In this document: positions 13,685 through 42,158 of the stretch, piece by piece
Layout: the number at the start of each line of letters is the position of its first letter
Numbering within the stretch: position 1 is the stretch's first letter
Source: an uncultured Rivularia sp.
GTDB taxonomy: Bacteria > Cyanobacteriota > Cyanobacteriia > Cyanobacteriales > Nostocaceae
Assembly: GCA_963665115.1 (NCBI GenBank)
Contig: OY762007.1
Span: forward strand, 352,001 to 416,000
DNA: 64,000 nt
Direction: 5' to 3'
Notes under the pieces: model-generated
Told to the model about the DNA's origin: nothing
The model's database searches: none
What the model saw: only the letters and a program-made list of their open reading frames with translations
Program-made: the position numbers and the translations under genes

Positions 13685-16226
13685 ATGTCACAGAAAAAGA
13701 AATTTGTCAAAAAGGGACAGGTCTACCGTTCCTTGGTTGCGGCTGCATTGATTGCTAATGGTGTATTTCAATTTATTGCTCCTGTATTAGCTCAAACATC
13801 AGCAGGTGGGGAAATTAAGAACAGAGCTACGGCAACCTACGAAGACCCCCACAGATCCGGGAACAACAATCAATACCACATCCAACGAAGTAGTTGTACA
13901 AGTTGCGGAAGTAGCAGGTATCACCGTTACAGGTGCCGGTACTACATTGAACACGGATGCTGATGGCGATAATACTCCCGATGCTGGCGATGAAGTTTAC
14001 TTTAACTACACCGTTACTAACGTTGGTAATGACTCAACACAGTTCAGAATACCAAACTTAGCAAGTACAACAGGTCCAGCTACTGTTTCTGGCAGTTTGG
14101 AATATAGTACTGATGGTGGTACTACTTGGATACCAATCGACAGCGGTGCAGGAGAAACTGAAGTCACAGTACCGGAGATTCCAGTTGGGGGTACAGTACA
14201 AGTTCGCGTTCCTGTTACAGTCGCAGCTGGTGCTCAAGCAGACGATATTATCACCGTTAAGTTGGGTGATACTCCAGGTGATGCCCAAAACCAACCACGT
14301 AATCCTGATGGTGGTGACATTTACACCGTGGATAACCCCGATGGCACTGGTAATGGTGAAGTAGATGGCGCTCCTGTTAACGGTACTCGTGAAGCTAGTG
14401 CTACTCAAGAAATTCAAGTCGATGCAACCTTAAAGACCTATGCATTGGCAAAGGTACTCAAAGAACGTAGTGACTACAGTAATTCGGGAACTCTAACTGA
14501 TATTACTGATGACACTTTAACCTACGACCTCAGCTTAGAAGTTGAGCAAAATGATTCTACTAACAGTGGAATTACTCCTGCACCATTAGTTGGTACAAAT
14601 ATTACTGTTGATGGTACCGCTAGTCCCCGTATCTTAGTTTCCGATGCAATTCCAGCTGGTACAGACTTGGCTAGCGTGCCTGCTGCACCTCCTGGTTGGG
14701 AAGTCGTTTACACCACAGATGCGGTAACAATAGATGCCAATGCAGCGACTTGGACTACAACAGCCCCGTCTCCTTTATCAACCGTAACCCGCGTTGGTTT
14801 TGTTAACAATCCTGGTATAGTCACCTCTGTTAACCCAGGTCAAACGGTAACTGGTTTCAAGATTAATCTTGTAGTTGAATCAACGGCAACAGCACCGTTA
14901 ACTGTCAACAATATCGCTCAGTTATTCGGTTCGTCTCCTGATAACGATAACGATGCCACCAACAATCCTCCAGTATATGACGAATCTGGTGATCAAAACC
15001 CCAGTAACTTTAATGATGATGGTACACCACTGACAGGAACAGATCCTGATGGTGATGGTATCCCCGAGACATTACCTGATACTGTTGTTGATGATGGTTT
15101 CATTGACGATCCTGCTGATGAAACGGCGACTGGAGTTGACACTGGAAACAATAACAGCGCTACAGGCAGTGAAGGTGGTGAACTGAACCAGTTTGTTATC
15201 GACCCAGATGCAAATGCACTAGTGAATGGACCTGAAGGTAGTCCAGATGCAATTGGTCCTACAGATAATAACGATGACTTCACCAACAAGTCTTCCTTAG
15301 TACCGCCTAATCTTGTACCAGATAATGGTACTACAATCGACCCAGCACCCGTAGCTTTCACGAATACCGTTGAAAATGGTAGTGCTACTCCAACTGATAT
15401 TTCACTGGTTCCCGCCCCACCTGCTAATCCCGCGGATTTACCTACTGGTACTACAGTAACTGTTAGTTATGATGCTGATTCTGTAGTTTACACCTGGGAT
15501 GGTACCAACTTTAATCCTCCTGCTGGTACTCCTCCTATTATCATTACTGCAGTACAACCTGGTCAAGAAGTCAACTATGGTGTTGAAGTCAACTTACCAA
15601 GTGATACACCTTTATCTACTGACTTGAATGACCCCGCAGACCCCAATTCCGGTACAATCGGTGGTTTCCCAGTTCCGATCAGAGCCTTTGTTGACGATGG
15701 AACTCCAGGTTTCGATGGTACAGAAGTTAACAATATCACTATTGACCAGGTATACACTGGCTACTTAAGACTGGATAAAGAGTCTAGAATTCTCAAAGGT
15801 GATGGCCCAGACGTATTAACTGGTCAGGATCAGTTCAGTAAAGATGAGAAGCAGCCTTCGGAAGGCAACTTGATTGAATACCGAATTATCTACAGCAACA
15901 TCTCTGATGCTGAAGCTGGAGATGGCAACATTACTTTAGATGCCGATAATGTGGTAGTCGAAGACGATGGTACCCTTGGTGATAACAACTGGGCAAAAGA
16001 CAATGATGGCGATAACATTATTGATACCAGTAACGTAGTTGGTTCTGCTCAAGATTCTGATGGTGGAAATATCCAATTCTTCAGCGGCGATCCTGCAACA
16101 ACTACCGCACAAGATCAAACAGGTACAGATGCTAATACTGATGTTACTAAGTATGTAGACGAAGTGGCACAACCTGTTGAACCTGGTGCGTCAGGAAACT
16201 TCACCTTCCAACGTAAGGTTAACTAA
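13685..16226 (+). CDS. Secreted acidic multi-Ig DUF11 protein, putative major fibre subunit (apparent +1 frameshift at 13846-13850)
   Basis: Signal peptide ..APVLA-Q; EIKNRATATYEDP|TDPGTTINTTSNEVVVQVAEVAGI; ends GNFTFQRKVN. Confidence 0.8.
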
Positions 16227-16452: not shown

Positions 16453-17029
16453 ATGAAAATAAAGCATGGCTCGTTTGTAGGTTTAAGCGCTCTAGCGATT
16501 ATCGCAACTATTTCCTTTAGCAATGCAATTCCTGCTGTCACGAATGCATTCAGTGGTGGAATTGCAAACGCGCAAAATGCTAAGAAGTCACAAGTACAGC
16601 TACGCTTAGAAGCTGAAAAGAAAATTGTTGGCAAAGATGCTCAAGGCAATAGAAAAGTAACTTGGCAAGGATTAAAAGATGGCGCTCAAGTACAGCCAGG
16701 AGATGTATTACGTTACTCTGTAAGTGGTGCAAACAATGGTACTAAAGCAGTCAAAAATCTTGCTATCAATCAGCCAATTCCTAGAGGAATGTCTTTCCTA
16801 CTGAATTCTGCAACTGTAAATGCTAATTCCGGCGCACAAATTACTTACAGTATTAACGATGGTAAGACTTTTGTAAAAAATCCTACTGTCCAAGTTAAGT
16901 TAGCAGACGGTACGGTAGTAACCCGTCCCCGCTCCAGATATTGCTTATACTCACATCCGCTGGAACTTTGGTAAATCCGTTCCTGCAAAAGCAGCAGTTA
17001 ATGGCACTTATCAAGTAAAAGTACGGTAA
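16453..17029 (+). CDS. Secreted single-domain DUF11 protein (apparent +1 frameshift at 16927-16930)
   Basis: GAGG SD; signal peptide; LEAEKK..QPGDVLRYSVSGANNG..INQPIPRG..TRP|APDIAYTHIRWNF..GTYQVKVR*. Confidence 0.8.
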
Positions 17030-17485: not shown

Positions 17486-19051
17486 GTGAGCCGCAAAAAG
17501 AAGCGATACCAGATTTATGGTAGTAGCTGGTTCCGACGGATAGCGGCTACCTTTTTAGCAGGAAGTATTGTTCAAAGTTCTATCTCTACATTTGCTCAAG
17601 AGGTTCCGAGTCCGTCAATTAACAACCAAGCTGAATTTAGTTATAAAAATAAAAAAGCTAGTCAAAATTTTCGGGGAATTACTAGTCAAATACAACTTGC
17701 TCCTTCAACTTCTGACCCAGAATCACCATTAATCGACCCGTTTGGACAAATTTTAGGTTGTAATAGCGAGGAATTAGACGATTATACGGGTTTTAGAGTT
17801 ACTTTATTTAATCCTGACCCTAACGACGCAACAGGAACAGAACCGGGGACAGAGGTTGACTTAACTGTAACCGATGACGATCCAAATACTGCTACTCCTC
17901 AAGGTATACAACCCAATATTACGAATACTAATAATTATGCTGTCACGAATGAAGCAGTTATTGATAGTAACGGTGAGTCTAAACGAGGTGTTTATAACTT
18001 CTTGTTTGACCAAAGCAAGAATCAAACCGATGTAGGTCGTACTTATATTTTAGTTATTAATCCTCCAGAAAATTCTAGTTTTACCGAGCGACGAATAAGA
18101 TTAGAAATTCAAAGTTTAAATGGCAATATCCTGACTTATATTGCTACCGCTTTAGATGGTCAGCCGATTACTGCTACAGGTGAAAATGCCGTTCAAATTT
18201 CTGATACTCAAATTTCCCAAGAATCTGTAGTTATCGATGATGCGGAAAGAATCGGATTAGCTTTAGCCCTTCAATTTAATTTAGATTTATGCTCTCCCGA
18301 GCAAATCCGCATCACTAAAACCGGAGATAGAGCTACAGCAGAACCTGGAGAAACGACTGTTTATCGTCTCTCGTTGAGAAATACAGGTGATGTTGGTTTG
18401 AATGATATAGTCGTTACCGACCAATTCCCCCTCGGATTCAAATTCTTACCCAAATCTGTTCGCGGTCAAATTGGGGATGAAGAAGTTGCTGTAACTACTG
18501 AAACAAATGGTTCAACCGTTACCTTCCGGACTGATGCAACAATTCCGGTTGATGGAGTTCTTAATATTGCTTACGCTGCAAAATTAACTCCCGATGCGGT
18601 GCGTGGTTCGGGTAGGAATACAGCGACTGTTAACGCCGAACGTATTGATAATGATTTTGCTGTCAAAGATGGACCAGCATCCCATTTACTTAAGATTCGT
18701 CCGGGAATTACTTCCGATTGCGGTACTATCATCGGTCGCGTATTTGTTGATAAAAACTTTGATGGGGAACAGCAAGCAGGTGAACCGGGAGTACCAAATG
18801 CGGTGGTCTTCTTAGAAAACGGCAACCGTATTACTACTGACCCAGACGGATTATATTCTGTCAAAAATGTATTGCCAGGTAAACATACAGGCGTTCTGGA
18901 TTTACAGAGTCTACCCGGCTATACTTTGGCTCCCAATGTCAAATTCAAAGAACGCAACAGCCAATCACGACTAGTAAATTTAGAACCTGGTGGAATGGTA
19001 AGAATGAACTTCGCAGTCACTCCTAGCTTTGGTGAGGAGGCAAAGAAATGA
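17486..19051 (+). CDS. Secreted DUF11 plus SdrD-B-like protein, putative base/anchor subunit
   Basis: SINNQAEFSY; ITKTGD..PGE..Y..VTDQFP..RNTATV; GRVFVDKNFDGEQQAGEPG; ATGA overlap with the next gene. Confidence 0.8.
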   Translation: MSRKKKRYQIYGSSWFRRIAATFLAGSIVQSSISTFAQEVPSPSINNQAEFSYKNKKASQNFRGITSQIQLAPSTSDPESPLIDPFGQILGCNSEELDDYTGFRVTLFNPDPNDATGTEPGTEVDLTVTDDDPNTATPQGIQPNITNTNNYAVTNEAVIDSNGESKRGVYNFLFDQSKNQTDVGRTYILVINPPENSSFTERRIRLEIQSLNGNILTYIATALDGQPITATGENAVQISDTQISQESVVIDDAERIGLALALQFNLDLCSPEQIRITKTGDRATAEPGETTVYRLSLRNTGDVGLNDIVVTDQFPLGFKFLPKSVRGQIGDEEVAVTTETNGSTVTFRTDATIPVDGVLNIAYAAKLTPDAVRGSGRNTATVNAERIDNDFAVKDGPASHLLKIRPGITSDCGTIIGRVFVDKNFDGEQQAGEPGVPNAVVFLENGNRITTDPDGLYSVKNVLPGKHTGVLDLQSLPGYTLAPNVKFKERNSQSRLVNLEPGGMVRMNFAVTPSFGEEAKK

Positions 19052-22000
19052 AACGACAATTAAATCGTACAGATACTTTTAATTTAAAGTTAGTCGGTGT
19101 AATGGCAGGAGCTATGACTGTGGTGTTATCCCCAATCATCGCAAGTGCAGAGTCTAAATCACAATCTACAAAACTTGAAGTTACAAAAGGAAAAGATTCC
19201 GAAGATAACAATCAATCTACTCGTTCTAAAAGAATTCTAAAAGTACTTGAAGTCCAAAATCGGAATAGTAAGAATAGTAAGAACAACAATAAAGATAAAA
19301 TTACTCCAGATTTTAATGAAGAGAGTAATACAGATTTGACTGCTAATTTACAAAAATTAGTAGCAGAAGGCAATAATAGCGCAGGATATATTTTAGCTGC
19401 ATTAAAAGCATCGGATATAAATGCAAAAAAAATATCTAGCAGTTTACAGAAGTTGGCAGACGAACGTAAAAAGGCGAATGATGAAAAGCTGATTGCTTTA
19501 AAGTCTGTTGAAGTTTCCGAACCTAAATTATCTCTAGTACAAAAGCTAAAAGTAACGCGCAATCATATCACCGATTCAAAAAAAGAATTGGTTGCTTTAG
19601 AGCCATCTCACAGTGAGAATAAGCTGCTTGAAGAAGATAACATGAATTTAGAGACGCAATCTATTGCGTCTACTATTAAATCTGAGAAAATAACAATTAA
19701 AGAGGCAGAGTATAATCCATTTTTACAAAATAGTTTATTTTCGATAGATATAGATAAAAAGTTATCTGATAACTTGCAAAAAATAAATCCAGCGGATAAT
19801 TATTTAGTTGCTTTAGAACCTTTTCTTGACGAACAAAAGCCAGTTGAATCGAAAATTGGTTCAAATAGTAAAGGTAAATATTTACTCTCTCTAGAACCTT
19901 TTATTAACGAAGAAAAGCCAACACAATCACCACAAAGTTCTACAGATAATTATTTTCTTGCTTCATTAACTAGCGAGAAAAATACATTTGCTTCGCGCAC
20001 ACTAAGCCCTTCGGGCATACTTAGCGAACGCGAACGCACTGAGAATTTTAATACTTGGAATGCTCCCAAACGTGGTAACTATTTTCTTGCTTTAGAACCT
20101 TTTCTTAATGAACAAAAGCTGGTTGAATCGAAAATTAGTCCAAATAGTAATTATTTTCTGGCTTTAGAACCTTTCCTCAAGCAAGAACAATCAGTAGAAT
20201 CTCAAATTCAAAATATATCAGAAAACGAAACAAATGTAAGACAATGGTTTTCTCAACTGGTTGCAATCAATGTATTTGAATCAACCCCTAAGAATCAAAT
20301 ACTAGAAAATGCCCCTACTTTAATTGCAAAGAATTGGAACGCAGATAATTTTACCAATAAAGACTATAGTTTTACATCATTAGTTGCCATAAAACCTTCA
20401 TCTTTTGCAGATAATGCAGATAATTATGAAAATAATTCATCTGAGATGCAACTAGCAGCAAGGTATAGTTCATTTAATTCTGGTGACAATCGCAATCAAG
20501 AGTTTCCGGGAAATAACCTGCTGACAGTTTATTCTAAATCTCCTTTTGGATTACCGAATTTAGAAAATTTAAACCCTAATTTAGCACCAAATTCTACTCA
20601 ATATATTTCTCAATTTCCCAAAGATACTAATAATTCTTCAACTGTAGTAATCCTCTCACCCACACCTGATGCTCTTGTGGATGTGGCTGCTACTCCAATT
20701 ATCGTGCAGTTCCCCGTAGGTAACGAAGTAGAATTACGAGTTAACGGGGAATTATCCGACCGTTCTTTAATTGGACGAACCGAAACAAACCCCGATACCG
20801 ATTTAGTTACGCAGACTTGGTATGGTGTTTCTCTGCAAAATGGAGAAAATGTTATATCGGCTCAGGTTCTTGGCTCCAAGGAACCTCCCGCTACGGTAAA
20901 GATAATGGTAAGGGGTGGAGCGAACGAACTAAAAATAGATACGGTAGAAGCACGGATTCCTGCTGACGGAATTTCTACGGCGACTATTAAAGGTACGTTA
21001 CTCGATGAAAATGGCAATCGTTCCAATCACGATGCAGTTGTTACTTTAGCAACTACTGCTGGGGAATTTGTCGAACCCGATTTTAAACCAGGACAACCGG
21101 GATTTCAAATACAGGCAAAAACTGGAGAATTTACTGCAACTCTAAAATCCGATTTAGAAGCGAAAACTGTACGAATTAAGGCGAAAGCTGGAAAATTAGA
21201 AGCTTTTACACAACTGCAATTTCAAACGGCTTTGCGTCCTAGTTTGATGACGGGGGTTATTGATTTTCGCTTAGGTGCTAGAGGTACAGATTTCTATAGT
21301 AGATTTAAAGATTTCCTCCCAGAAGACGAAGACAACGATACCGAAGTCAAATTCCGTTCGGCTGTATTTGCAACTGGTGCAATTGGTGAATGGCTGGTAA
21401 CTGGTGCTTATGATAGCAGTCGCTCTTTAAATGAAGATTGTAACTGCGATAATCGCTTATTTGGAACTTACCAGTTTAACGAAAATAATTACCCTACTTA
21501 CGGTGATAGTTCTACAGTAAATGCTACGACTCCATCTACTGACAGCGTATATTTACGGTTAGAGCGCTCGTCTCGTACTCCGGGGGCTAATCCCGATTAT
21601 GCGATGTGGGGTGATTACAACACTGAAGAATTTTCTCGTTCTTCACAGCAGTTTACTTCCCTGACTCGTCAGCTACACGGTTTCAAAGCTAATTACAATA
21701 TTGGCAAACTTCAAGCTACAGCTTTCTACGGCAACAATATAGAAGGTTTTCAACGCGATATCTTACCCCCTGACGGAACCAGCGGTTTTTACTTTTTATC
21801 TCGCAGATTAACCGTACCCGGTAGTGAAAGTGTCTTCATTGAATTAGAAGAATTGAATCGTCCCGGTACCGTATTGCAACGGGAACGGTTGAATAGGGGT
21901 GCGGATTACGAGATTGATTACGATAGAGGAACAGTTCTATTCCGCGAACCAGTTTTACGTACAGATGTCAATGAATTTGGTGAAGTTTTGGTAAGACGTA

Positions 22001-24027
22001 TTGTCGTTACTTATCAATACGAAGGAGAAGCAGGAAACGATACTGATATTTACGCGGGAAGATTGCAATATAACTTCTCTCAAGGGGCAGAAAAAGATAG
22101 CTGGTTGGCTACAACTTATCTCCAAGAAAATCAAGGCGATCGCGATTTTGAATTGTACGGTGCGGATGCTCAATTTACTTTTGGTAAGTTAGGTAAAATT
22201 GTTGCCGAATACGCTCGGAGTCGCAACGATTCCGACGAGATGGGAATGGTGGAAGGTGATGCTGTCAGGGCTGAAGCTGAAGCAGAATTTATTAAAGGTT
22301 TACGCGCTCGCGCTTATTACCGTTTTGCAGATACTGGATTTGCAAACAACGCTACTATTAGCTTTGTCCCCGGACAAACTCGTTACGGAGCGCAGGTTAA
22401 CGGAAGAGTTTCCAAGACAACCAATTTACGGTTTCAGTACGACCGTGAAGACAACTTTGGGATTGCACCTCAACCGCTGGATACTTTTGAAGAGTTCTTT
22501 TCACCTCGTACAACAGCTGTTCCTGGTAGTGAAGTTGATAACTCTTTAACTACAATTTCTGCTGGTATCGTACAGAGATTGGGTAAAGCTAGCTTATCAG
22601 TAGATTGGATCAATCGGGAACGAGAAGATCGGATATCACCCCAAACTCTCAATACAGATTCTAGTCAATTACGTTCTCGTCTTAATGTTCCTATTGCCAA
22701 AAAACTTTCTTTCTTAGCTCAAAACGAAACTACATTATCTGACGATACAGATGCAGTTTACCCAGATAGAACTGTCTTCGGAATTAACTGGGAAGCGATT
22801 CAAGGTATTAATCTTTCGTTAACGCAACAGTTTTTTACTCAAGGACAATTTGACGGTAATTCTATCACCAGTTTCAATGTCAATGGGGAACATAACTTTG
22901 GAACGGATACCACTGTTACCGGACGTTTCTCTGTATTGGGTGGTTCTAACGGACCTACTACTCAAGGTGCTTTAGGTTTAAAACAAGGTTTAACTATAGC
23001 TCCCGGATTGCGGTTGAGTATGGCTTACGAACACGTTTTTGGCGACTTCTTCGGTCGTAACGGTTCCGGAGTACAATTCGCACAACCTTTCGCTGTAGGT
23101 TCGAGTACTGCGGCTTTAGGTTTCAATTCCGGAGATAGTTATAGTGTCGGCTTGGAATACACCGATAATCCAGACTTCAAAGCCAGCGCTCGGTTTGAAC
23201 GCAGAAGTTCTTCAAGCGGAAATAATACCGTAATTTCCGCAGGTGCTACTGGTAAAATTTCATCTTCAATTACAGCTTTAGCACGCTATCAACAAGCAGG
23301 TTCGAGCAATCAAACTTTGAGAGCATTAGGAGATACGGCTAATTTAAGAGTTGGTTTAGCATATCGCAATCCTAAAAACGATAAACTTAATGCTTTATTG
23401 CGTTATGAATATCGTAAAAATCCTTCAACGATTCCCGAAAGTATTTTACTCGGAAGCGGTTCTGGAGCAGAAGACCATACTTTTGCCATTGAAACAATCT
23501 ACGCACCGAATTGGCAATGGGAATTTTATGGTAAATATGCTTTACGCAACAGTACCACTTACTTAGCTAACGATTTTTCATCCAGCACTTCAACCAATTT
23601 AGGACAGTTACGCGCTACCTATCGCTTGGGATACAGTTGGGATTTAGTCGGAGAAGCACGAGTAATTAAGCAATCTGACTATACGGAAACTGGTTTTGTT
23701 GTCGAAGCAGGTTATTATCTAACCCCGAATTTAAGAGTAGCTGGAGGTTACGCTTTTGGGGAAATAGACGACCGCGATTTTGATGGTAGTCGTTCCGCTA
23801 GCGGACCATATTTGGGTGTGACAATGAAGCTTAACCAGTTATTTAGCGGCTTTGGTTTACAGAAAAAAGTACCCCGCAAAGAAATAGAAGCACGACAAGG
23901 CTTATTGAATAAACTTAGAAACGAGAAAAACCCAACCACTCAAACATTAACCGAAAGAATCAAAAGAGCTAACACAAAGAATGAAATAGAAAAAAAAGCT
24001 GTTGTAAAGACTGACGACGAGGAGTAA
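19048..24027 (+). CDS. Large putative outer-membrane beta-barrel protein with Ig-like N-terminal domains
   Basis: Signal peptide; low-complexity N-terminus; invasin-like IPADGISTATI; long region of alternating aromatic strands ending GPYLGVTMKLNQLF. Confidence 0.75.
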   Translation: MKRQLNRTDTFNLKLVGVMAGAMTVVLSPIIASAESKSQSTKLEVTKGKDSEDNNQSTRSKRILKVLEVQNRNSKNSKNNNKDKITPDFNEESNTDLTANLQKLVAEGNNSAGYILAALKASDINAKKISSSLQKLADERKKANDEKLIALKSVEVSEPKLSLVQKLKVTRNHITDSKKELVALEPSHSENKLLEEDNMNLETQSIASTIKSEKITIKEAEYNPFLQNSLFSIDIDKKLSDNLQKINPADNYLVALEPFLDEQKPVESKIGSNSKGKYLLSLEPFINEEKPTQSPQSSTDNYFLASLTSEKNTFASRTLSPSGILSERERTENFNTWNAPKRGNYFLALEPFLNEQKLVESKISPNSNYFLALEPFLKQEQSVESQIQNISENETNVRQWFSQLVAINVFESTPKNQILENAPTLIAKNWNADNFTNKDYSFTSLVAIKPSSFADNADNYENNSSEMQLAARYSSFNSGDNRNQEFPGNNLLTVYSKSPFGLPNLENLNPNLAPNSTQYISQFPKDTNNSSTVVILSPTPDALVDVAATPIIVQFPVGNEVELRVNGELSDRSLIGRTETNPDTDLVTQTWYGVSLQNGENVISAQVLGSKEPPATVKIMVRGGANELKIDTVEARIPADGISTATIKGTLLDENGNRSNHDAVVTLATTAGEFVEPDFKPGQPGFQIQAKTGEFTATLKSDLEAKTVRIKAKAGKLEAFTQLQFQTALRPSLMTGVIDFRLGARGTDFYSRFKDFLPEDEDNDTEVKFRSAVFATGAIGEWLVTGAYDSSRSLNEDCNCDNRLFGTYQFNENNYPTYGDSSTVNATTPSTDSVYLRLERSSRTPGANPDYAMWGDYNTEEFSRSSQQFTSLTRQLHGFKANYNIGKLQATAFYGNNIEGFQRDILPPDGTSGFYFLSRRLTVPGSESVFIELEELNRPGTVLQRERLNRGADYEIDYDRGTVLFREPVLRTDVNEFGEVLVRRIVVTYQYEGEAGNDTDIYAGRLQYNFSQGAEKDSWLATTYLQENQGDRDFELYGADAQFTFGKLGKIVAEYARSRNDSDEMGMVEGDAVRAEAEAEFIKGLRARAYYRFADTGFANNATISFVPGQTRYGAQVNGRVSKTTNLRFQYDREDNFGIAPQPLDTFEEFFSPRTTAVPGSEVDNSLTTISAGIVQRLGKASLSVDWINREREDRISPQTLNTDSSQLRSRLNVPIAKKLSFLAQNETTLSDDTDAVYPDRTVFGINWEAIQGINLSLTQQFFTQGQFDGNSITSFNVNGEHNFGTDTTVTGRFSVLGGSNGPTTQGALGLKQGLTIAPGLRLSMAYEHVFGDFFGRNGSGVQFAQPFAVGSSTAALGFNSGDSYSVGLEYTDNPDFKASARFERRSSSSGNNTVISAGATGKISSSITALARYQQAGSSNQTLRALGDTANLRVGLAYRNPKNDKLNALLRYEYRKNPSTIPESILLGSGSGAEDHTFAIETIYAPNWQWEFYGKYALRNSTTYLANDFSSSTSTNLGQLRATYRLGYSWDLVGEARVIKQSDYTETGFVVEAGYYLTPNLRVAGGYAFGEIDDRDFDGSRSASGPYLGVTMKLNQLFSGFGLQKKVPRKEIEARQGLLNKLRNEKNPTTQTLTERIKRANTKNEIEKKAVVKTDDEE

Positions 24028-24146: not shown

Positions 24147-26309
24147 ATGTATAAAAATACTAAAAAAAACTCTTTTGAAAAGTTCAACGCAGCAAAACGT
24201 TTATTAATTAGCCTACCAGTTTTATTACTAACGGCTCCAAATATCGCTTTTGCTCAACCAACTACAGCTTTAAGTTTAAGCGTAACAGTCAACAGCAACC
24301 AGGATGGAAGCATACAGGCTGATGATAAGCTAACATTACGCGAAGCAATTGCCATCGTCAACGGTAATCTATCTGTAGAAAAACTCAGTGCTGCTGAAAA
24401 ATCTTTGGTTTCATCTGGGAATAACCAGTCTCGGATTGAATTTAATCTTGCTCCCGGACAAACTACAATCACCTTAGAAAGCATTCTCCCAGCTTTAACA
24501 AATCCAGGATTGATAGTTGACGGTACCTCTCAACCAGGATACAAAGCCGATAAATCTGCAACCGCAGAAATTGAGATTCCCATTCCAGTTGTAGAAATCA
24601 CTTCCGCTGCCGACAAACAAGTATTTCGCGGTTTAACGGTAGCAGCCGATAATATTACAGTTCAGGGATTGAGTATATATGGGTTTAGTTCAAAACATAC
24701 AGATACAGCTAGCTTACCTCCAGGGGATGTTGTTGTTGTACCCTATCGTTCCGTTTTAATACAAGATAGGGAGACAAGGGGACAAGGAGACGAGGAGAAT
24801 TCTTCTCAGCCACCCAAAAATGTCAACATTAAAAATAACTGGTTGGGTATTACCTCAGAAGAACAAGTTCCTAATAAAACTTCGGCTTTTGGGGTTTCTG
24901 TATTTGATGCAACTGGTACAAATATCAACCGTAACCTGATTGCAAATCATGAAGGTAGCGGAATTATTACTGGAAAATTAGCAGAAAATACTCAAATTCA
25001 ATCAAATATCATCGTTGGTAATGGAATAGCTGGTGTTCCCGATGCAATTAGACTGGAAGGTCGAATTAATAATTCTCAAGTTACTTCAAACTTAATTTGC
25101 GCCAACGACGGCAGCGGAGTGTACTTGTTTAAGCCAGAAGGCTCAGTACAAATACAGTCAAACAATATTAAGTATAACGGTAGACGCTTGCGACGTGCGG
25201 GTGTTTACTTGATGGGTAATAACCATCAGGTAGCTAATAACCAAATCACCAATCAACCAGGTTCCGGAGTTGCGATTACAGCTTATCCCGACAGCAAAGG
25301 AAACGTTGTCAGAGACAACAGCTTTGGCAATATAGAAGGATTGAGTATCGACCTCAACTACAGAAATACTGCCAGCGTCCGCGATTTTCAACGAGGAGAC
25401 GGTCCCAACCCACCGAGAAATTCTGGAAATCGTCGTAAGGATACCGCAAACGGTGCTATCAACGCTCCAGAGTTTCTCAGTTCCGAATTTATTATTATTA
25501 ACGGTAAAGTAAATATTGACGGAAAAGCCGACCCAGGTAGCGAAATTGATATTTATAAAGTAAATCCCAATAGCAGACAGCAAATAGATTTATATCCCGC
25601 ATATTCCGCATTAGGGGAAGTAATTGGCAGAGTTAAAACTGACGAAAAAGGTAGATTCAAAGCCACCTTTACAAACCTGCAACCTGGGGAAATTATTAGT
25701 GCGATCGCCACTCAAAATAAATACGGAACCTCAGAACCAGCAGCGAATGCAATAGTTAAATCAGTTGGTAATTCCGGAATCCAAAATCCACAATCCCCAA
25801 TCCAAAATTTTGAAACCCCCAACTGTACAACCCGTCCGGTAGCACCAACACCAGAACCACCAATTCCTCAACCACCAATTCCAGATCCAATACCCGAACC
25901 ACCCGCACCAATTCGTTTAAGCGTACCTAGAAACGTCCACTTTGCACTAGATAAAGACTTTATCAGTCCCAAAAGTGGAGAAGTTCTAGATAAAATCGCT
26001 GAAGTCATGGAGCAATATCCCAACATAGTCATTGAACTACAAGGACATACCGACTCCCGCGCTAGCGTTGCTTATAACCAAGATTTGGCGAAAAGACGCG
26101 CAACAAACGCGAGAAATTACCTAGTTAAAAGAGGTATCGCACCCGAAAGAATGACCATTCGTTCCTTTGGAGAACGGAAATTACGGACAGAGGAAAATAA
26201 TCGAGTAGATTACGCACGCAACCGTCGAGTTGAAGTATTGTTCTTTGATGTTAGGGGAATTGACATCGAATTTGAGAATCAGGAAAGAGATTTGCAGATA
26301 GAAAAGTAA
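24147..26309 (+). CDS. Right-handed beta-helix protein with Pro linker and C-terminal OmpA domain
   Basis: VNSNQDG..LTLREAI; I.NN.I repeats; VHFALDK..GHTDSRASVAYNQDLAKRRA..RNRRVE. Confidence 0.88.
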   Translation: MYKNTKKNSFEKFNAAKRLLISLPVLLLTAPNIAFAQPTTALSLSVTVNSNQDGSIQADDKLTLREAIAIVNGNLSVEKLSAAEKSLVSSGNNQSRIEFNLAPGQTTITLESILPALTNPGLIVDGTSQPGYKADKSATAEIEIPIPVVEITSAADKQVFRGLTVAADNITVQGLSIYGFSSKHTDTASLPPGDVVVVPYRSVLIQDRETRGQGDEENSSQPPKNVNIKNNWLGITSEEQVPNKTSAFGVSVFDATGTNINRNLIANHEGSGIITGKLAENTQIQSNIIVGNGIAGVPDAIRLEGRINNSQVTSNLICANDGSGVYLFKPEGSVQIQSNNIKYNGRRLRRAGVYLMGNNHQVANNQITNQPGSGVAITAYPDSKGNVVRDNSFGNIEGLSIDLNYRNTASVRDFQRGDGPNPPRNSGNRRKDTANGAINAPEFLSSEFIIINGKVNIDGKADPGSEIDIYKVNPNSRQQIDLYPAYSALGEVIGRVKTDEKGRFKATFTNLQPGEIISAIATQNKYGTSEPAANAIVKSVGNSGIQNPQSPIQNFETPNCTTRPVAPTPEPPIPQPPIPDPIPEPPAPIRLSVPRNVHFALDKDFISPKSGEVLDKIAEVMEQYPNIVIELQGHTDSRASVAYNQDLAKRRATNARNYLVKRGIAPERMTIRSFGERKLRTEENNRVDYARNRRVEVLFFDVRGIDIEFENQERDLQIEK

Positions 26310-26320
26310 TTTCCCCTGAT

Positions 26321-27922
26321 GTAGAGACGTAGCAGTGCTACGTCTCCGGGCAATTTGAACATAACACAGACAACCCCAACAACCCGAACACAACACAGAC
26401 AACACCAACATCTCAAACACAACACAAACAACCCCAGCCGATAAATGCTAATTACCACCATAAATACGGAGACGTAGCACTGCTACGTCTCTACACCAGT
26501 ACTGAAAACGATTTAAAACAACAACACAGACAATCCCTAATAACCCGAACACCAAACAAATAACCCCAACCGATAAATGCTAATTACCACCACTAATGTA
26601 GAGACGTAGCAGTGCTACGTCTCCCGGCAATTTGAACATCACACAGACAACCCCCAACAACCCGAACACCAAACAAACAACCCCAGCCGATAGATGCTAA
26701 CTACCACCACTAATGTAGAGACGTAGCAGTGCTACGTCTCCCGGCAATTTGAACATCACACAGACAACCCCCAATAACCCGAACATCTCAAACACCAAAC
26801 AAACAACCACAGCCGATAGATGCTAACTACAACCATAAATACGGAGACGTAGCACTGCTACGTCTCTACACCAGTACTGAAAACAACTTAAAACATCTGA
26901 TTATGATGCAACCGAAATTCAAAGGTAAATACCGAATTGAATCTACCCGTTTACCAGATAGGGATTATGCTGCTAATGGTTGGTATTTCGTCACTATTTG
27001 TACAAAAAATTGTATTTATCATTTGGGTAATGCGGTTGTTTCTGGTGAGGTACAGCTAACACCAATTGGTGAAATAGCCCAACAATATTTTATTGATATC
27101 CCCAAATATTCTAAACATACCTATATAGACACATATGTAATAATGCCCAATCACGTCCACGGAATTGTGGTTATCGACAAACCTACAGATACTGCAATAT
27201 CACGTCATAAAAATACGGAAGTGGACATTATACAAGGTGAATTTATGTCCCAGATATCCCCAAAACCAGGTTCGTTAAGTACTATTATCCGTTCTTACAA
27301 ATCAGCCGTTACCCGATGGTGTCGTCGCAACAAACATGAATATTTCGCATGGCAAGAAAGATTTTATGAAAGCATTATTCGCGTCGATGATTCCATAGAT
27401 AGAATTCGCCAATACATCATTAATAACCCCGCGAAATGGGAACAACACAAAAACAACCCCCCAGATTTATGGATGTAAAACACCCACCAATAATAAATGT
27501 AGAGACGTAGCACTGCTACGTCTCCCGGCAATTTGAACACAACACAGACAACCCCAGCGACCTAAACCACAACACAAATAACCCCAGCCGATAGATGCTA
27601 ATCACAACCATTAATGTAGAGACGTAGCAGTGCTACGTCTCCCGGCAATTTGAACACAACACAGACAACCCCAGCGACCTAAACCACAACACAGACAACC
27701 CCAACATCTCAAACACAACACAAACAACCCCAGCCGATAAATGCTAACTACAACCCTATATAAGGAGACGTAGCAGTGCTACGTCTCTACACCAGTACTG
27801 AAAACGATTTAAAACAACAACACAGACAATCCCTAATAACCCGAACACCAAACAAACAACCCCAGCCGATAGATGCTAATCACAACCATAAATACGGAGA
27901 CGTAGCACTGCTACGTCTCTAC
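26321..27922. repeat. Tandem REP/BIME-like array of 9 REPs surrounding the RAYT gene
   Basis: GTAGAGACGTAGCA(G/C)TGCTACGTCTC forward at 26321, 26598, 26715, 27499, 27616; reverse (ending CTAC) at 26469, 26844, 27765, 27897; homologous A/C-rich linkers. Confidence 0.9.
26903..27478 (+). CDS. REP-associated tyrosine transposase (RAYT/TnpA-REP, HUH Y1)
   Basis: YFVTICT, MPNHVHGI (HUH), WQERFYE, QYIINNP (catalytic Tyr); flanked by GTAG-REPs. Confidence 0.9.
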   Translation: MMQPKFKGKYRIESTRLPDRDYAANGWYFVTICTKNCIYHLGNAVVSGEVQLTPIGEIAQQYFIDIPKYSKHTYIDTYVIMPNHVHGIVVIDKPTDTAISRHKNTEVDIIQGEFMSQISPKPGSLSTIIRSYKSAVTRWCRRNKHEYFAWQERFYESIIRVDDSIDRIRQYIINNPAKWEQHKNNPPDLWM

Positions 27923-28099: not shown

Positions 28100-29935
28100 A
28101 TGGAATTTATATTTAAACACTTACTTGGCTTATATAGCGCCGAATCTGCAAAAAATAAACCCAAAAACAAGAGATTTTCCCAAAAATTAATTATAAATCT
28201 CGGATATATGGGAGTTTTTCTGTTTCAGTTTTTAATAGCTTCGCCAAAAGTTTTAGCTCAAAGTAACTTTTGCTCCAGCCCTTACAACATGGTTTACTCG
28301 GGGCATTTCCCTAATAGGATTGATGCGATTCACGTTGATAGCGGTGCTTCTGTGCCGTTGACAACATCAAATATTGCTGCTAACACTAACAGTCTCGCTA
28401 GCGACCATGTTAATAACTTAGTTTATTATGCAGAAAACCAGTCTATTTATGCCTGGAGTCCAATTACTAATACACATACTGTGATTACAAGTAATATAAA
28501 AGGCTTCGCTGGCACTAGCAATATTAGCAGTCTTAGTAGTGGTGGTGCAGCTTTTTATAATGGCTCGCTCTACCTGGGTATTGATGAAAATCAACATACT
28601 GGTGGTGCTGAAGTGTATAAAGTTGATTTTGTACCTGCTTCCAATGGTCAGACAGTTCAAAGCGTGACTTCGCTTAATATCGCTAGTTTGATTCCACCTA
28701 GCGATTGGGGGGATCTTAGTATTGATAATAATGGTGTAATGTTAGGTGCTACCCCCGGTGGCTTTTGGACTTATAACCTAAACAACGGTACATACACCTC
28801 TCTTTCGAGTAACCTTCCAGGAGGTCAGCACCAACTAGCTAAAGATGGCCAAGGTCGCCTATGGGCTGTAGTTTACACGCCGACTAAATTCATCTTTCAA
28901 GTTCAGGTTGTTGGTAATAGCATTCAACAAGTAGGTCAAACTATTTCTGTAGATCCTCATGACACTAATGATGCTGCTGAATGTGTAATTGGTGAGTCTA
29001 GTATAGGCGACCGTGTTTGGAATGATGCTAATGAAAATGGCGTGCAAGATGCTGGAGAAGATGGTATTGAGAATGTCACAGTTGACTTGTACTGGGACAT
29101 TAACGGCAATGGTCAAATTGATAATGGTGACGATCCTCTATTAGCAACCCAAACCACAGGTACTAATGGTAATTATGATTTTCCTGACCTAATTTTTGGT
29201 AATTATATTGTTAAAGTTTCTGATACCAATGGGGTGCTTACAAACGCTTCATTGACTAGTGCGTCGGATACCCACAGCGTAAATTTATTACCTGGCACTG
29301 TAGATTATAATGATGCAGACTTTGGTTATAAACTGGCAATTGCCAGTAACCCTGACGTATTAATAGTCAAACGCATCACCGCAATAAACGGCGATCGCAC
29401 TAAAAACCCCAACGACAATACTCCCTTAAATACCTTCGTCGATGATACAGTTTCTGCTCGTAAAGATGATGATAACAATCCCAACTGGCTAGATAATTAC
29501 CTCATTGGTGCCATTGATGCAGGTAAAGTAAAACCCGGTGACGAAATTGAATATACGGTTTACTTCCTTAATGCTGGAAGTAGCGATGGAGAAAACCTGC
29601 GAATATGCGACAGAATTACTCCCGACCAAGATTTTAAATTAAATGCTTACGGTACTGGTAACGACTTGCAATTAAAATTAGACAGCAAGGCTGTAATTAA
29701 TTTAACCAGTGCTTCCGATACTAATGACCGCGCTCAATTAATTCCAACAACTGGTAGTGTTCCAGCTAACTGTAACCTCAAGGGTACAAACGATAGCGGC
29801 ACATTACAAATTGACATTACAGGTACAGGAAATACTACCCAATCCGATTTAAACAGCGTACCCGGTTCTACAGGAAAAGGAACCCCCGATAACTCCTACG
29901 GATTCTTCAGATTTACAACCACCGTCAAACCATAA
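28100..29935 (+). CDS. Adhesin A: signal, Cys-bracketed propeller, SdrD-B, truncated C-terminal DUF11
   Basis: VLA-QSNFC..NDAAEC; SIGDRVWNDANENG; VKRIT..PGDEIEY..ICDRI..YGFFRFTTTVKP*. Confidence 0.8.
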   Translation: MEFIFKHLLGLYSAESAKNKPKNKRFSQKLIINLGYMGVFLFQFLIASPKVLAQSNFCSSPYNMVYSGHFPNRIDAIHVDSGASVPLTTSNIAANTNSLASDHVNNLVYYAENQSIYAWSPITNTHTVITSNIKGFAGTSNISSLSSGGAAFYNGSLYLGIDENQHTGGAEVYKVDFVPASNGQTVQSVTSLNIASLIPPSDWGDLSIDNNGVMLGATPGGFWTYNLNNGTYTSLSSNLPGGQHQLAKDGQGRLWAVVYTPTKFIFQVQVVGNSIQQVGQTISVDPHDTNDAAECVIGESSIGDRVWNDANENGVQDAGEDGIENVTVDLYWDINGNGQIDNGDDPLLATQTTGTNGNYDFPDLIFGNYIVKVSDTNGVLTNASLTSASDTHSVNLLPGTVDYNDADFGYKLAIASNPDVLIVKRITAINGDRTKNPNDNTPLNTFVDDTVSARKDDDNNPNWLDNYLIGAIDAGKVKPGDEIEYTVYFLNAGSSDGENLRICDRITPDQDFKLNAYGTGNDLQLKLDSKAVINLTSASDTNDRAQLIPTTGSVPANCNLKGTNDSGTLQIDITGTGNTTQSDLNSVPGSTGKGTPDNSYGFFRFTTTVKP

Positions 29936-29947
29936 CCCACAACTAAT

Positions 29948-30070
29948 GTAGCGGGGAGACGTAGCAATGCTACGTCTCCCCGCAATGCGAACACAACACA
30001 AACAACCTCAGCCGATAGATCCTAATCGCAACCCTATATACGGAGACGTAGCATTGCGCCCCGTCTCTAC
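29948..30070. repeat. REPIN-like inverted REP pair between adhesins A and B
   Basis: Forward REP variant, linker homologous to the RAYT array, reverse REP ending CTCTAC. Confidence 0.75.
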
Positions 30071-30104
30071 AAAAAAATTATTTTCAATATTGAACAAAAC
30101 ACCC

Positions 30105-32675
30105 ATGCTAAATTCTAAACTGAAATCAAACCTTCCCCGCAAAAATAAACGAAATCGCCGCAATAAACGTATTTACGATTATCGTCCTTTGCTGATGACA
30201 TTTTTACTTACAGGTAGTAACTGGTTGTCAGCATTGCCATTATTAGCCGCCAGTCCGACACCTGGAACGGTAATTGATAACCAAGCAACTGGTAGTTTTA
30301 CTGACCCAAATGACAATAATAACGAAGTACAAATTGAATCAAACGTAGTTCAAGTAGAAGTTGCTGAAGTTGCGGGTATCACTATTTCCCAATCAGCCGT
30401 CCCAGAAGAAGCCCCCAGTGGTGTTAGCGGTGCGGGAGCTAATCAAGGCAATGGTGATATTAACCCCGATGATATTATTTACTTTACTTATAAAATTACT
30501 AACGTTGGTAACGATCCTACACAATTCTTTATTCCTGACGCACCTTCTTCAGTTAACAATGGTAATCTTAACGGAAATATTCAAATTATTGAATATGACC
30601 CCGATGGTTCTGGTGCAACTGCTGCAACTGATTTAAGTGGTTCTCCTATAACTATTCCCAGTGGTGGAATTAGTACAGGAGATGCTGCTGCTTTAGATTT
30701 ACCTAACGGTTCTATTCCCCCTGAAGGTACAGTAACAATTCGCGTTCCCATCAAAGCTAGTTCCACATTGATTGATGGGGATACAGTAACGGTGGTCATG
30801 GGTGATACTAACCCTGTAGGCGGACAAAACCAAGTTTACGCTGCTGGGACCAATGATGTTTATACCCAAGATAATCCAGATGGGACAACGGGGGAAACCA
30901 ATGGGACTCCAATAAATGGAGACGCTACAAATCATCGACAGGAAGCGAGTTTTAGTCAAGAAGTGACAATCGTGGCAAATCCTAGCGGTCCCGTTGTTAC
31001 TACAAACTTTTGCTCCAGTGCTTACAACATGATTTACTCGGGGCATTTCCCTAATAGGATCGATGCGATTCACGTTGATAGCGGTGCTTCTGTGCCGTTG
31101 ACAACATCAAATGTTGCTGCTAACACTAACAGTCTCGCTAGCGACCATGTTAATAACTTAGTTTACTATGCAGAAAACCAGTCTATTTATGCCTGGAGTC
31201 CAATTACTAATACACATACTGTGATTACAAGTAATATAAAAGGCTTCGCTGGCACTAGCAATATTAGCAGTCTTAGTAGTGGTGGTGCAGCTTTTTATAA
31301 TGGCTCGCTCTACCTGGGTATTGATGAAAATCAACATACTGGTGGTGCTGAAGTGTATAAAGTTGATTTTGTACCTGCTTCCAATGGTCAGACAGTTCAA
31401 AGCGTGACTTCGCTTAATATCGCTAGTTTGATTCCACCTAGCGATTGGGGGGATCTTAGTATTGATAATAATGGTGTAATGTTAGGTGCTACCCCCGGTG
31501 GCTTTTGGACTTATAACCTAAACAACGGTACATACACCTCTCTTTCCAATAACCTTCCAGGAGGCCAGCACCAACTAGCTAAAGATGGCCAAGGTCGCCT
31601 ATGGGCTGTAGTTTACACGCCGAATAAATTCATCTTTCAAGTTCAGGTTGTTGGTAATAGCATTCAACAAGTAGGTCAAACTATTTCTGTAGATCCTCAT
31701 GACACTAATGATGCTGCTGAATGTGTAATTGGTGAGTCTAGTATAGGCGACCGTGTTTGGAATGATGCTAATGAAAATGGCGTGCAAGATGCTGGAGAAG
31801 ATGGTATTGAGAATGTCACAGTTGACTTGTACTGGGACATTAACGGCAATGGTCAAATTGATAATGGTGACGATCCTGTATTAGCAACCCAAACCACAGG
31901 TACTGATGGTAATTATGATTTTCCTGACCTAATTTTTGGTAATTATATTGTTAAAGTTTCCGATACCAATGGAGTGCTTACAAACGCTTCATTGACTAGT
32001 GCGTCCGATACCCACAGCGTAAATTTATTACCTGGCACTGTAGATTATAATGATGCAGACTTTGGTTATAAACTGGCAATTGCCAGCAATCCCGATGTCA
32101 TTCTAGTCAAACGCATCACCGCAATAAACGGCGATCGCGATAAAAACCCCAACGACAATACTCCCTTAAATACCTTTGTCGATGATACAGTTTCTGCTCG
32201 TAAAGATGATGATAACAATCCCAACTGGCTAGATAATTACCTTATTGGTGCCATTGATGCAGGTAAAGTAAAACCCGGTGACGAAATTGAATATACGGTT
32301 TACTTCCTCAATGCTGGAAGTAGCGATGGAGAAAACCTGCGAATATGCGACAGAATTACTCCCGACCAAGATTTTAAATTAAATGCTTACGGTACTGGTA
32401 ACGACTTGCAATTAAAATTAGACAGCAAGGCTGTAATTAATTTAACCAGTGCTTCCGATACTAATGACCGCGCTCAATTAATTCCAACAACTGGTAGTGT
32501 TCCAGCTAACTGTAACCTCAAAGCCACCAACGATAACGGCACATTACAAATTGACATTACAGGTACAGGAAATACCACCCAATCTGATTTAACAACCGTA
32601 CCCGGTTCCACAGGAAAAGGAACACCCGATAATTCCTACGGATTCTTCAGATTTACAACCACCGTCAAACCCTAA
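30105..32675 (+). CDS. Adhesin B: donor hairpin, Ig domain, propeller, SdrD-B, truncated DUF11
   Basis: Start by homology to 32868; PGTVIDNQATGSFTD..ESNVVQVEVAEVAGI; 3' part near-identical to adhesin A. Confidence 0.8.
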   Translation: MLNSKLKSNLPRKNKRNRRNKRIYDYRPLLMTFLLTGSNWLSALPLLAASPTPGTVIDNQATGSFTDPNDNNNEVQIESNVVQVEVAEVAGITISQSAVPEEAPSGVSGAGANQGNGDINPDDIIYFTYKITNVGNDPTQFFIPDAPSSVNNGNLNGNIQIIEYDPDGSGATAATDLSGSPITIPSGGISTGDAAALDLPNGSIPPEGTVTIRVPIKASSTLIDGDTVTVVMGDTNPVGGQNQVYAAGTNDVYTQDNPDGTTGETNGTPINGDATNHRQEASFSQEVTIVANPSGPVVTTNFCSSAYNMIYSGHFPNRIDAIHVDSGASVPLTTSNVAANTNSLASDHVNNLVYYAENQSIYAWSPITNTHTVITSNIKGFAGTSNISSLSSGGAAFYNGSLYLGIDENQHTGGAEVYKVDFVPASNGQTVQSVTSLNIASLIPPSDWGDLSIDNNGVMLGATPGGFWTYNLNNGTYTSLSNNLPGGQHQLAKDGQGRLWAVVYTPNKFIFQVQVVGNSIQQVGQTISVDPHDTNDAAECVIGESSIGDRVWNDANENGVQDAGEDGIENVTVDLYWDINGNGQIDNGDDPVLATQTTGTDGNYDFPDLIFGNYIVKVSDTNGVLTNASLTSASDTHSVNLLPGTVDYNDADFGYKLAIASNPDVILVKRITAINGDRDKNPNDNTPLNTFVDDTVSARKDDDNNPNWLDNYLIGAIDAGKVKPGDEIEYTVYFLNAGSSDGENLRICDRITPDQDFKLNAYGTGNDLQLKLDSKAVINLTSASDTNDRAQLIPTTGSVPANCNLKATNDNGTLQIDITGTGNTTQSDLTTVPGSTGKGTPDNSYGFFRFTTTVKP

Positions 32676-32687
32676 CCCACAACTAAT

Positions 32688-32833
32688 GTAGAGACGGGGC
32701 GCAATGCGCCCCGTCTCCCCGCAATGCGAACACAACACAAACAACCCCAGTACCCCAGCCACCCAAACAACCTCAGCCGATAGATCCTAATCACAACCCT
32801 ATATACGGAGACGTAGCAGTGCTACATCTCTAC
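32688..32833. repeat. REPIN-like inverted REP pair between adhesins B and C
   Basis: GTAGAGACGGGGCGCAATGCGCCCCGTCTC ... GAGACGTAGCAGTGCTACATCTCTAC. Confidence 0.75.
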
Positions 32834-32867
32834 AAAAAAATTATTTTAAATATTAAACAAAACACCT

Positions 32868-37148: not shown

Positions 37149-37359
37149 ACAATGCTGCAACGTGTTTTATCCTATTACCCAAGACGTAGCATTGCTACGT
37201 CTCTACACTGTTTTTCGATTTACCCTCGAAGATAAAAATAACTGTTCCCTATTCCCTTTTGCTAATTAGAATTTTTAACGCTAATCTACTTATGATTTAT
37301 ATTTAATGGTTTTCAGGGGTTGCTACCAAAATCAAACCATTTTATAGTCAATCATCAAA

Positions 37360-39992: not shown

Positions 39993-40019
39993 TTTGTGAA
40001 AACTTAAGAAACATAATAT

Positions 40020-42037: not shown

Positions 42038-42038
42038 A

Positions 42039-42158
42039 TAAGTATTTAGGCAACATTAATTGTCTATTTGTCATTGTGGGTGAAACGAAGCATTCAACGT
42101 TCACCGGAGGTGCGGCTCATCTCTTATATTTAATTACCCCCCGCCTACTACCTACTTA
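42039..42158. mobile_element. Degenerate MITE-like element
   Basis: TAAGTA..ATTAATT and TTTAATTA..CCTACTTA ends; abuts the adhesin remnant. Confidence 0.45.

Follow-up and report, generated by a model that had tools for sequence, protein, structure and literature searches.

A window of 64,000 nucleotides from an uncultured Rivularia sp. (positions 352,001 to 416,000 of the forward strand of contig OY762007.1, assembly GCA_963665115.1) carries two overlapping genes, 17486 and 19048, whose products we call the anchor subunit A and the barrel protein B. B is predicted to be an outer-membrane pore of about 38 strands, larger than any solved one that we found, and the C-terminal domain of A is predicted to dock in its lumen. 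We give roughly an even chance to the reading that B is a pore and A a cork in its lumen, with the rest of A likely threaded outward and its N-terminal hairpin placed where it would initiate and retain a surface fibre. Together the two proteins would likely anchor, and probably also export, such a fibre or an adhesin. The other genes discussed below encode a major subunit (M), a small acceptor-only protein (S) and a set of adhesin-like proteins (D). Coordinates refer to the window and are collected in Table 1.

Both A and B are intact in the source assembly, and their nearest named relatives are Rivularia and Calothrix proteins. Trichormus variabilis ATCC 29413 is also among the organisms with a listed relative (P0070). 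The ATGA sequence in which the stop codon of A overlaps the start codon of B, noticed earlier, is real. In run X2 a single contig covers 18748-26346 without a difference from the window, and a -4 overlap with the upstream partner recurs at 42 of 55 barrel genes of at least 900 amino acids (aa), kin that are not independent, against a background of 49 among 1625 same-strand neighbours in the source genome. The spacing is -1 in two further loci and different again in eight, the remaining three being a fusion (L039), a locus with a larger partner (L046) and the source genome's copy 2, whose partner is broken. A Shine-Dalgarno-like 4-mer lies ahead of 38 of the 45 overlapping partner/barrel junctions. 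These loci comprise 54 stretches from 42 of 43 other matching genomes, together with the three source-genome copies; genome G052 (two fragments on short contigs) and a fragment on G267:C165 stand outside the counts. Read from the overlap, the translation of A and B is probably coupled. An assembly artefact behind the overlap was considered and rejected, as the X2 contig agrees with the window and relatives keep the two as separate genes, each with a signal peptide.

The fold of B was predicted for residues 525-1610 from a 108-row alignment, with a mean per-residue confidence (pLDDT) of 83.9 and a predicted TM-score (pTM) of 0.77. In order, the model shows two immunoglobulin (Ig)-like domains, seven strands, an insertion at residues 900-991, fifteen strands, a low-confidence stretch and fifteen more strands. 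Long loops lie on one side of the barrel, where the inserted domain also sits after strand 7, and short turns on the other. Thirty-seven barrel strands are thus modelled and one amphipathic strand (1288-1297) was read from its pattern in the low-confidence stretch, the count being taken from the secondary-structure string rather than from coordinates. The earlier note had spoken of a 1659-aa barrel; the long run of amphipathic strands stands, but the barrel occupies residues 733-1596 only. The full length overstates the machine, because residues 35-524 are a lineage-specific extension of low complexity: rich in Ser, Asn, Lys and Glu, they match none of 55 other copies of B, in which the Ig domains begin at a median residue of 141. 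Four short NYFLAL-like repeats lie within this variable extension, at 19876-20190 (residues 277-381).

The presence of Ig-like domains in B and the lack of recognisable TonB, POTRA or usher features had both been read from the sequence, and family scans bear this out. Big_1/Invasin_D3 matches fall at residues 630-725, while TonB, Plug, POTRA and Usher families give no match in B in Pfam and NCBIfam scans. One fused relative (P0136/L039) lacks the Ig domains. No barrel family reached its cut-off in B or in the relatives scanned (34 and 23), and the only POTRA match, sub-threshold at E 0.045, fell on a fragment of the inserted domain in the scan of relatives. A comparison with ushers, SprA and BamA had been called for; with Foldseek, the B model matched no solved structure at a TM-score above 0.26, the top match being the 30-stranded Deinococcus SlpA at 0.22, with SprA at 0.17. 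VIA-align paired the two Ig domains with GH2 and invasin domains (Z 12-15) and the barrel with FimD (12.4), LptD (12.1), SlpA (12.0), SprA (11.9) and PapC (11.8), matches that are tied and all partial. Sequence searches of solved structures returned nothing for the whole of A or of B, a profile search finding the Ig domains only. Unnamed clusters made up 28 of the 30 matches in an Atlas structure search with the B barrel.

The earlier note had proposed that B anchors the base of a fibre, and the predicted docking of the SdrD-like domain of A in the lumen of B gives this proposal a physical basis. The input to the complex prediction was the B barrel and this domain, the DUF11 domain of A and the Ig domains of B being excluded for size. 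Three runs gave a complex score of 0.84, against 0.01 for the best control, with contacts agreeing between runs to at least 91% and a partner pLDDT of at least 82. Of 157 solved complexes, 116 reached the mark, as did 2 of 215 mismatched pairs; with alignments of our own these counts apply only roughly. The score supports, short of showing, that B binds the SdrD-like domain of A. Predicted contacts involve alternate, polar-face residues of strands 30-38 and 1-4, together with loop L2, which pairs edge-on with the SdrD domain; the hydrophobic share is 0.33 among contact residues and 0.54 among the residues next to them. Across 37 distant relatives, lumen-face conservation was 0.42-0.78 for strands 26-38 and 1-11 and 0.27-0.46 for strands 12-23, so the contact side of the lumen is its better-conserved side. 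Sequence searches of solved structures found no like complex. The docked domain would lie with its N-terminal pole deeper in the membrane and its C-terminal pole toward the periplasm, an orientation that fits both the relatives with OmpA after the docking domain and P0136, in which strand 1 follows that domain. Since the contact map names residues for mutation, the model is directly testable.

The association of barrel and partner extends well beyond the source organism. A profile-free search of 1.84 billion representatives gave 1823 relatives at E 0.001 or better. Within the cyanobacterial phylum the barrel was found in 44 of the 301 genomes searched, among them 22 of 37 in the source's family, Nostocaceae. 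The earlier note would have given up its proposal had the barrel commonly occurred without DUF11 genes. This is not the pattern: a DUF11/SdrD partner, whether adjacent, fused or broken, accompanies all 55 full-length barrel genes of the phylum, the sole barrel seen without one being a 435-aa fragment (L047), and L045 is an additional fusion beyond L039. Ten plasmid loci (of 26 records), found with the barrel alone as query, are likewise all partnered; in nine of them a DUF11 gene is fused to the barrel or lies upstream of it, and in the tenth a docking-domain remnant sits beside an insertion sequence.

Among 75 distant relatives with at least 600 matched barrel residues, 49 are DUF11/SdrD-barrel fusions, all of which carry an SdrD-like domain. 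A donor-like motif follows the signal peptide in 31 of 50 fusions by pattern (P0136 included) and in 23 of 49 by profile. The SdrD domain of P0136 runs directly into strand 1, and P0212 has eight cadherin-like repeats before its DUF11-SdrD-barrel arrangement. Fused relatives carry OmpA, SLH or Ig domains at the C-terminal end of the docking domain; the fusions joining A, B and OmpA that had been thought worth seeking do exist, with OmpA after SdrD in P0203, P0249, P0257, P0259, P0262, L058, L060, L061 and L062. Named carriers of a fusion or barrel include Acidobacteriota, Moraxella, a deltaproteobacterium, Chloroflexota, Leucothrix, Gemmatimonadetes, Halieaceae, Ignavibacteriaceae, and Alpha-, Beta- and Gammaproteobacteria. 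Twelve loci came from a search with a fused query, which biases them in favour of linkage. In Roseovarius, Roseivivax, Sinorhizobium and Devosia the gene immediately upstream of the barrel encodes a giant DUF11 protein, in some cases annotated at 3,300-6,100 aa. As many Proteobacteria hold a single giant DUF11 adhesin by the same pore and domain, pore and cork appear to form the conserved core. No Deinococcus plasmid was among the matches listed for three barrel queries.

Two side observations concern these relatives. A two-gene form in Alphaproteobacteria (L071, L072, L076 and L068) consists of a DUF11 giant of about 2,700-6,100 aa ending in the docking domain, followed by a barrel that is often annotated as a TonB receptor. 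The source genome has two more barrel copies (G000:C1:3279389-3282031 and 966753-969440), 57% and 55% identical and both with a short partner, which in one case is split into 119- and 153-aa pieces.

In the model of mature A (pLDDT 84.8), which overall resembles Gram-positive pilins, the part after the signal peptide starts with a free hairpin and a disordered linker and continues with three domains, in the order Ig-like, DUF11 and SdrD-B-like. The DUF11 domain of A aligns with CLIPPER (9IFR) at Z 15.0 and rmsd 2.7 over 121 residues, and 52 of 52 A proteins retain its Lys/Asp/Asn triad. As had been described, A ends in an SdrD-B-like domain and not in an acceptor: the SdrD_B match in Pfam (E 2e-7, residues 418-483) follows a DUF11 domain that is complete. 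A profile of the docking SdrD domain gives 175 bits for A, itself in the profile, and 13-15 bits for adhesin SdrD domains. To call A donor-only is right in architecture, since its DUF11 domain is complete and no acceptor follows at the C-terminus. The donor-like character attributed to its N-terminus holds for the family more clearly than for this copy. The hairpin is free in the model, its Asn and Tyr are invariant in 84 of 84 aligned rows and retained in the source copy, and 28 of 35 long-type relatives score above the 99th percentile of shuffles on the donor-hairpin profile of M, but the source copy itself reaches only 0.7 bits. From sequence, then, the donor role looks solid for the family and for M and weak for the source copy. 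A further match, 'Aduf vs An', was in-sample and was disregarded.

The gene order M, S, long A, barrel is found in 34 of 55 loci, and S is present in all 34 loci that contain M; an OmpA domain occurs in 21 of 55. The C-terminal DUF11 domain of M stops just before the last hairpin. On an independent profile, built from the last hairpin of 115 internal non-cyanobacterial DUF11 domains, 30 of 35 M N-termini score above the 99th percentile of shuffles, and the last hairpin is found at the C-terminus of 0 of 35 M, 0 of 37 S and 3 of 43 D proteins. M thus has what a donor-strand subunit should have, an N-terminal donor homologous to the hairpin that is absent from the C-terminal acceptors. M and D end in DUF11 domains with Lys and Asp but without the last, Asn-bearing hairpin, the C-terminal Lys being retained in 35 of 35 M and the C-terminal Asp in 32 of 32 D proteins. 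In S, Ala, Gly, Val or Ser takes the Lys position (36 of 36) and Gln mostly the Asp position (31 of 36), and S is a candidate reversible cap or chaperone. The downstream adhesins are mostly acceptor-only, with donor-profile matches in 3 of 43, and the OmpA-C protein encoded after B is a likely peptidoglycan tether. Adhesin-type domains among the partners include GEVED, cadherin-like and tandem DUF11 domains.

These elements suggest the following course of assembly. A and B, both with signal peptides, would probably be made together in near-equal amounts. The SdrD-like domain of A is predicted to bind the inner wall of B at strands 30-38 and 1-4 and to pair with L2, leaving its C-terminal end toward the periplasm and the N-terminal part of A directed outward. 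The donor hairpin would then complete the acceptor of M or D, and a Lys-Asn bond between subunits may form. Growth would proceed outward from A, with M added distally and acceptor-only adhesins as caps; this direction seems the most likely because A has a donor but no acceptor and in many bacteria forms one protein with the pore. S, whose acceptor lacks Lys and Asp, could shield donors reversibly in the periplasm, and OmpA-C proteins would tie the pore to the wall. The exit of subunits would probably be by the half of the lumen that is free and less conserved, the weakest step of the scheme, which would make B a translocon for subunits other than A, as the earlier note had supposed. A broader version is more tentative, and we put its chances at somewhat worse than even: a multi-phylum, so far undescribed class for secretion and anchoring in which the largest single-chain outer-membrane barrel, corked from inside by a dedicated SdrD-like domain, would pass folded, isopeptide-stabilised Ig domains, the cyanobacterial form being a sortase-free, self-locking pilus that grows distally, with S as an 'inverse chaperone'.

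Several points weigh against the pore-and-cork reading. No energy source for export is evident, and the space for export in the lumen hinges on where the inserted domain (900-991) is placed. The orientation of the docked domain comes from a list of contact pairs and not from coordinates; the DUF11 and Ig domains lie outside the complex model; and what was modelled as a pair is elsewhere encoded by one fused gene, with such fusions present in both alignments. The hairpin of the source A, close to zero on the M donor profile, scores -0.2 bits on the independent profile, on which long-type A as a class succeeds in only 2 of 35 cases, and a hairpin profile from the DUF11 domain of A itself hardly separates donors from shuffled sequences, with 10 of 52 for A and 2 of 35 for M. 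The catalytic position of M is Asp in 26 of 35 proteins and Asn in nine. Seventeen of the 55 loci have a short A with no M or S within the fetched stretch, and the docking-domain profile matched 8 of the 10 plasmid partners, missing those of L069 and L074.

The same evidence can be arranged in other ways. In an usher-like, tip-first scheme the barrel would build the fibre at its base, taking acceptor-only adhesins and then M, with S as chaperone and A added last as terminator and anchor, the part played by PapH and FimI in chaperone-usher pili. Such a scheme shares its subunit polarity with those pili, would give the mid-barrel inserted domain and the two Ig domains a use as binding sites, and agrees with the place of FimD and PapC among the best barrel matches (Z 11.8-12.4) and with the constant company of S and M. 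We nevertheless consider it unlikely, if credible: 49 of the 75 distant relatives have A covalently fused to the barrel, which implies that A is present from the start, P0136 does without the Ig domains, and the matches to ushers cover part of the barrel (273-383 aligned, rmsd 6-17) and score level with those to LptD, SlpA and SprA. Alternatively, B may only thread and hold A, or a giant adhesin, with M and D leaving by another route such as a secretin and assembling outside. The tight linkage of the M, S and D genes to the barrel makes this rather unlikely, as does a 38-strand lumen that would far exceed the need of one docked domain, even though the universal core is the barrel and docking domain alone, proteobacterial two-gene loci have no separate subunits and half of the lumen wall is poorly conserved. 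Both schemes, like the pore-and-cork reading, retain the anchoring of the fibre base by B.

A periplasm-facing arrangement, with A plugging the barrel from below and the DUF11 chain serving as an envelope scaffold or tether, or with the barrel as a gated channel for other cargo, is quite doubtful. The accessible text of one source (PMC12617251) presents DUF11 as forming stalks in surface adhesins, and the stalk and adhesin domains of the partners (GEVED, cadherin-like, tandem DUF11) also point to the outside. Partners of 3,000-6,000 aa would fit the periplasm poorly, although many predicted contacts do lie at periplasmic turns, OmpA-C and SLH domains accompany the module and the docked orientation was itself deduced. 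That B is an ordinary TonB-dependent receptor, the name that databases give to many relatives, is hardly credible, and we rejected it at the level of the model. Barrels of such receptors have 22 strands, and B does not model as the standard 22-strand form that would have spoken against the earlier proposal: it shows 37 strands plus one, no N-terminal plug, Ig domains before strand 1 where a plug would be expected, no TonB or Plug family match and a constant DUF11/SdrD partner. No TonB receptor appears among the structure matches listed (the best 50 of VIA-align, and those of Foldseek), an absence that would not exclude one by itself.

Set beside known machinery, the pore-and-cork system has partial likenesses to several. 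Chaperone-usher pili are made of Ig-type subunits that are joined by donor elements at their N-termini, with acceptor-only subunits at the tip and a donor-only one as anchor, and ushers, like B, are outer-membrane barrels with an inserted domain. FimD aligns with B over 378 residues at rmsd 16.0 (Z 12.4) and PapC over 308 at rmsd 6.3 (Z 11.8). This system, unlike that of the ushers, uses as donor a DUF11-type hairpin with isopeptide residues, and its anchor, in many cases one protein with the pore, has its predicted docking site in the lumen. A fimbrial usher was rejected on strand number, on the PF00577 usher profile, which has no match in the source genome and was positive in the E. coli control, and on the PapD-family chaperone, for which none of the 33 window proteins scanned has a Pfam match, S being DUF11-like instead. 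SprA is, like B, a very large single-chain barrel; their alignment (Z 11.9, rmsd 14.4, 503 aligned) is tied with those of unrelated barrels. A short motif of the inserted domain may recall SprA, though TIGR04189 matches only 1 of 25 relatives, at E 0.29. The search of the source genome for SprA was one run with no positive control. According to the accessible part of one source (bioRxiv 10.64898/2026.03.07.710327), the usher barrel has 24 strands and SprA, called the largest known barrel, has 36, against the 38 predicted in B. SprA exceeds 2,000 residues, whereas the barrel of B has 864, Foldseek relates the two at a TM-score of only 0.17, and the DUF11/SdrD partner is dedicated to B.

Membership of Omp85/TpsB was rejected, as B has neither 16 strands nor a POTRA domain, the POTRA match mentioned above being sub-threshold. 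Type Va and Vb systems have barrels of 12 or 16 strands and join an N-terminal passenger to a C-terminal barrel, fused or in two adjacent genes. The likeness of our system to such autotransporters and two-partner systems is one of logic only, namely a passenger and a barrel, fused or split, with the passenger held by its C-terminal end; B differs in its 38 predicted strands and its lack of POTRA, the retention domain is folded and SdrD-like, and the passenger could nucleate a polymer. The system is outside the TonB receptors, the ushers and Omp85, and outside SprA on size and strand number; by analogy, its way of working may combine traits of an autotransporter or two-partner system with those of a donor-strand pilus. 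CLIPPER shares the fold and the Lys/Asp/Asn triad of the middle domain of A. In the accessible text on CLIPPER/DUF11 the bonds are intramolecular, in tandem adhesin stalks (PMC12617251); relative to that account, the proposed splitting of the domain between subunits and the barrel partner are features of the A/M/B system. Archaeal threads and haloarchaeal tafi are also donor-strand fibres without an usher. As far as the available portions of the sources go, the donor-strand thread Saci_0406 has isopeptide bonds between its subunits, and Saci_0405 serves it as a donor-only cap (PMC9715654; PMC11821415); the thread differs in having no outer membrane or barrel and in a bond that runs from Asn to an N-terminal Asp. 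For D. radiodurans, the accessible part of one paper has a one-sentence mention of three predicted 38-stranded barrels, with no function or partner (PMC9388160). A full-text literature search, with most subscription papers beyond its reach, found no description of a pore-plus-cork system.

Table 1. Features of the A/B locus and its neighbourhood (window coordinates)
Feature	Position	Strand	Remarks
Major subunit M	13685..16226	+	N-terminal donor hairpin and C-terminal hairpin-less DUF11 acceptor; extra base 13846
Small protein S	16453..17029	+	acceptor-only, without isopeptide Lys and Asp; extra base 16927
Protein A (17486)	17486..19051	+	521 aa; GTG start; open reading frame call and model pLDDT 84.8
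Free N-terminal beta-hairpin of A, donor-like	17618..17695	+	residues 45-70; invariant Asn47; pLDDT about 60
Complete DUF11/CLIPPER domain of A	18305..18697	+	Lys278, Asp312, Asn378; fold match 9IFR
Docking SdrD-B-like domain of A	18704..19030	+	complex prediction; lumen-face contacts
ATGA stop/start overlap of A and B	19048..19051	+	GAGGAGG ends 9 nt before ATG
Barrel protein B (19048)	19048..24027	+	1659 aa
Variable low-complexity extension of B	19150..20619	+	residues 35-524; four short NYFLAL-like repeats; left out of model
Two Ig-like domains of B (invasin/intimin/GH2 type)	20632..21228	+	putatively periplasmic; family matches and model
Predicted 38-strand outer-membrane barrel	21244..23835	+	residues 733-1596; model pLDDT 83.9, pTM 0.77
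Long loop L2 of B	21415..21546	+	residues 790-833; low confidence alone; predicted pairing with docked SdrD domain
Conserved beta-rich inserted domain of B, strands 7/8	21745..22020	+	residues 900-991; candidate plug or lid
Beta-helix and OmpA-C protein	24147..26309	+	likely peptidoglycan tether
Four adhesin-like genes ending in acceptor domain	28100..40000	+	28100 without donor; 29967 and 32868 with donors; 37360/38057 frame-broken
Further acceptor-only adhesin-like gene	44486..47285	+	frame-broken near 46600

Some of these genes are frame-broken in the assembled sequence. Single extra bases in C-runs at 13846 (in M) and 16927 (in S) break both frames. Run X1 agrees with the window, runs X2 and X3 are without the extra bases, and run X4 has little coverage of the stretch; over 13 kb, the comparison of the window with X2/X3 lists these two bases as its only indels and lists no substitution. 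They may represent the error of one run, real variation between samples or on/off switching by slippage. Further frame breaks occur in adhesin-like genes near 37790, 39510 and 46600, at short homopolymer runs. The adhesins 28100, 29967 and 38057 (28100-39514) share a near-identical block of about 330 aa, a putative propeller plus SdrD, which is recombined with or without the donor N-terminus and with two alternative acceptor C-termini, suggesting recent domain shuffling.

Mobile elements and unrelated gene clusters make up other parts of the window. The stretch 41474-43870 contains an IS607-like resolvase (the label is our own reading) paired with TnpB (42288-43860), and after them a short, stop-terminated remnant at about 43850-43875, resembling an acceptor C-terminus, suggests an insertion of the element into a further adhesin gene. 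At 26316-27800, high-copy repeats flank a REP-associated tyrosine transposase (26903-27478), and contig depth at 26086-26500 is about 50x that of the rest. We also observed a Bpu10I-type restriction endonuclease beside a DNA methylase (829-2982), two tandem PD-(D/E)XK (PDDEXK_2) genes (47350-49147) and a chemotaxis-like cluster of CheA, GAF-MCP and CheW (56967-63335).

If the pore-and-cork reading is true, it would add a new outer-membrane system for export and anchoring, with a barrel larger than SprA, that the annotation 'TonB-dependent receptor' now masks. The isopeptide domain, being split by nature, would offer a covalent tag-catcher pair of a new kind, and the pore, as a holder of folded passengers, could serve as a display tool. 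The reading would also explain how the DUF11 adhesins of bacteria with two membranes reach the surface and stay there, and would provide the cyanobacteria with a candidate fibre for adhesion and biofilm formation.

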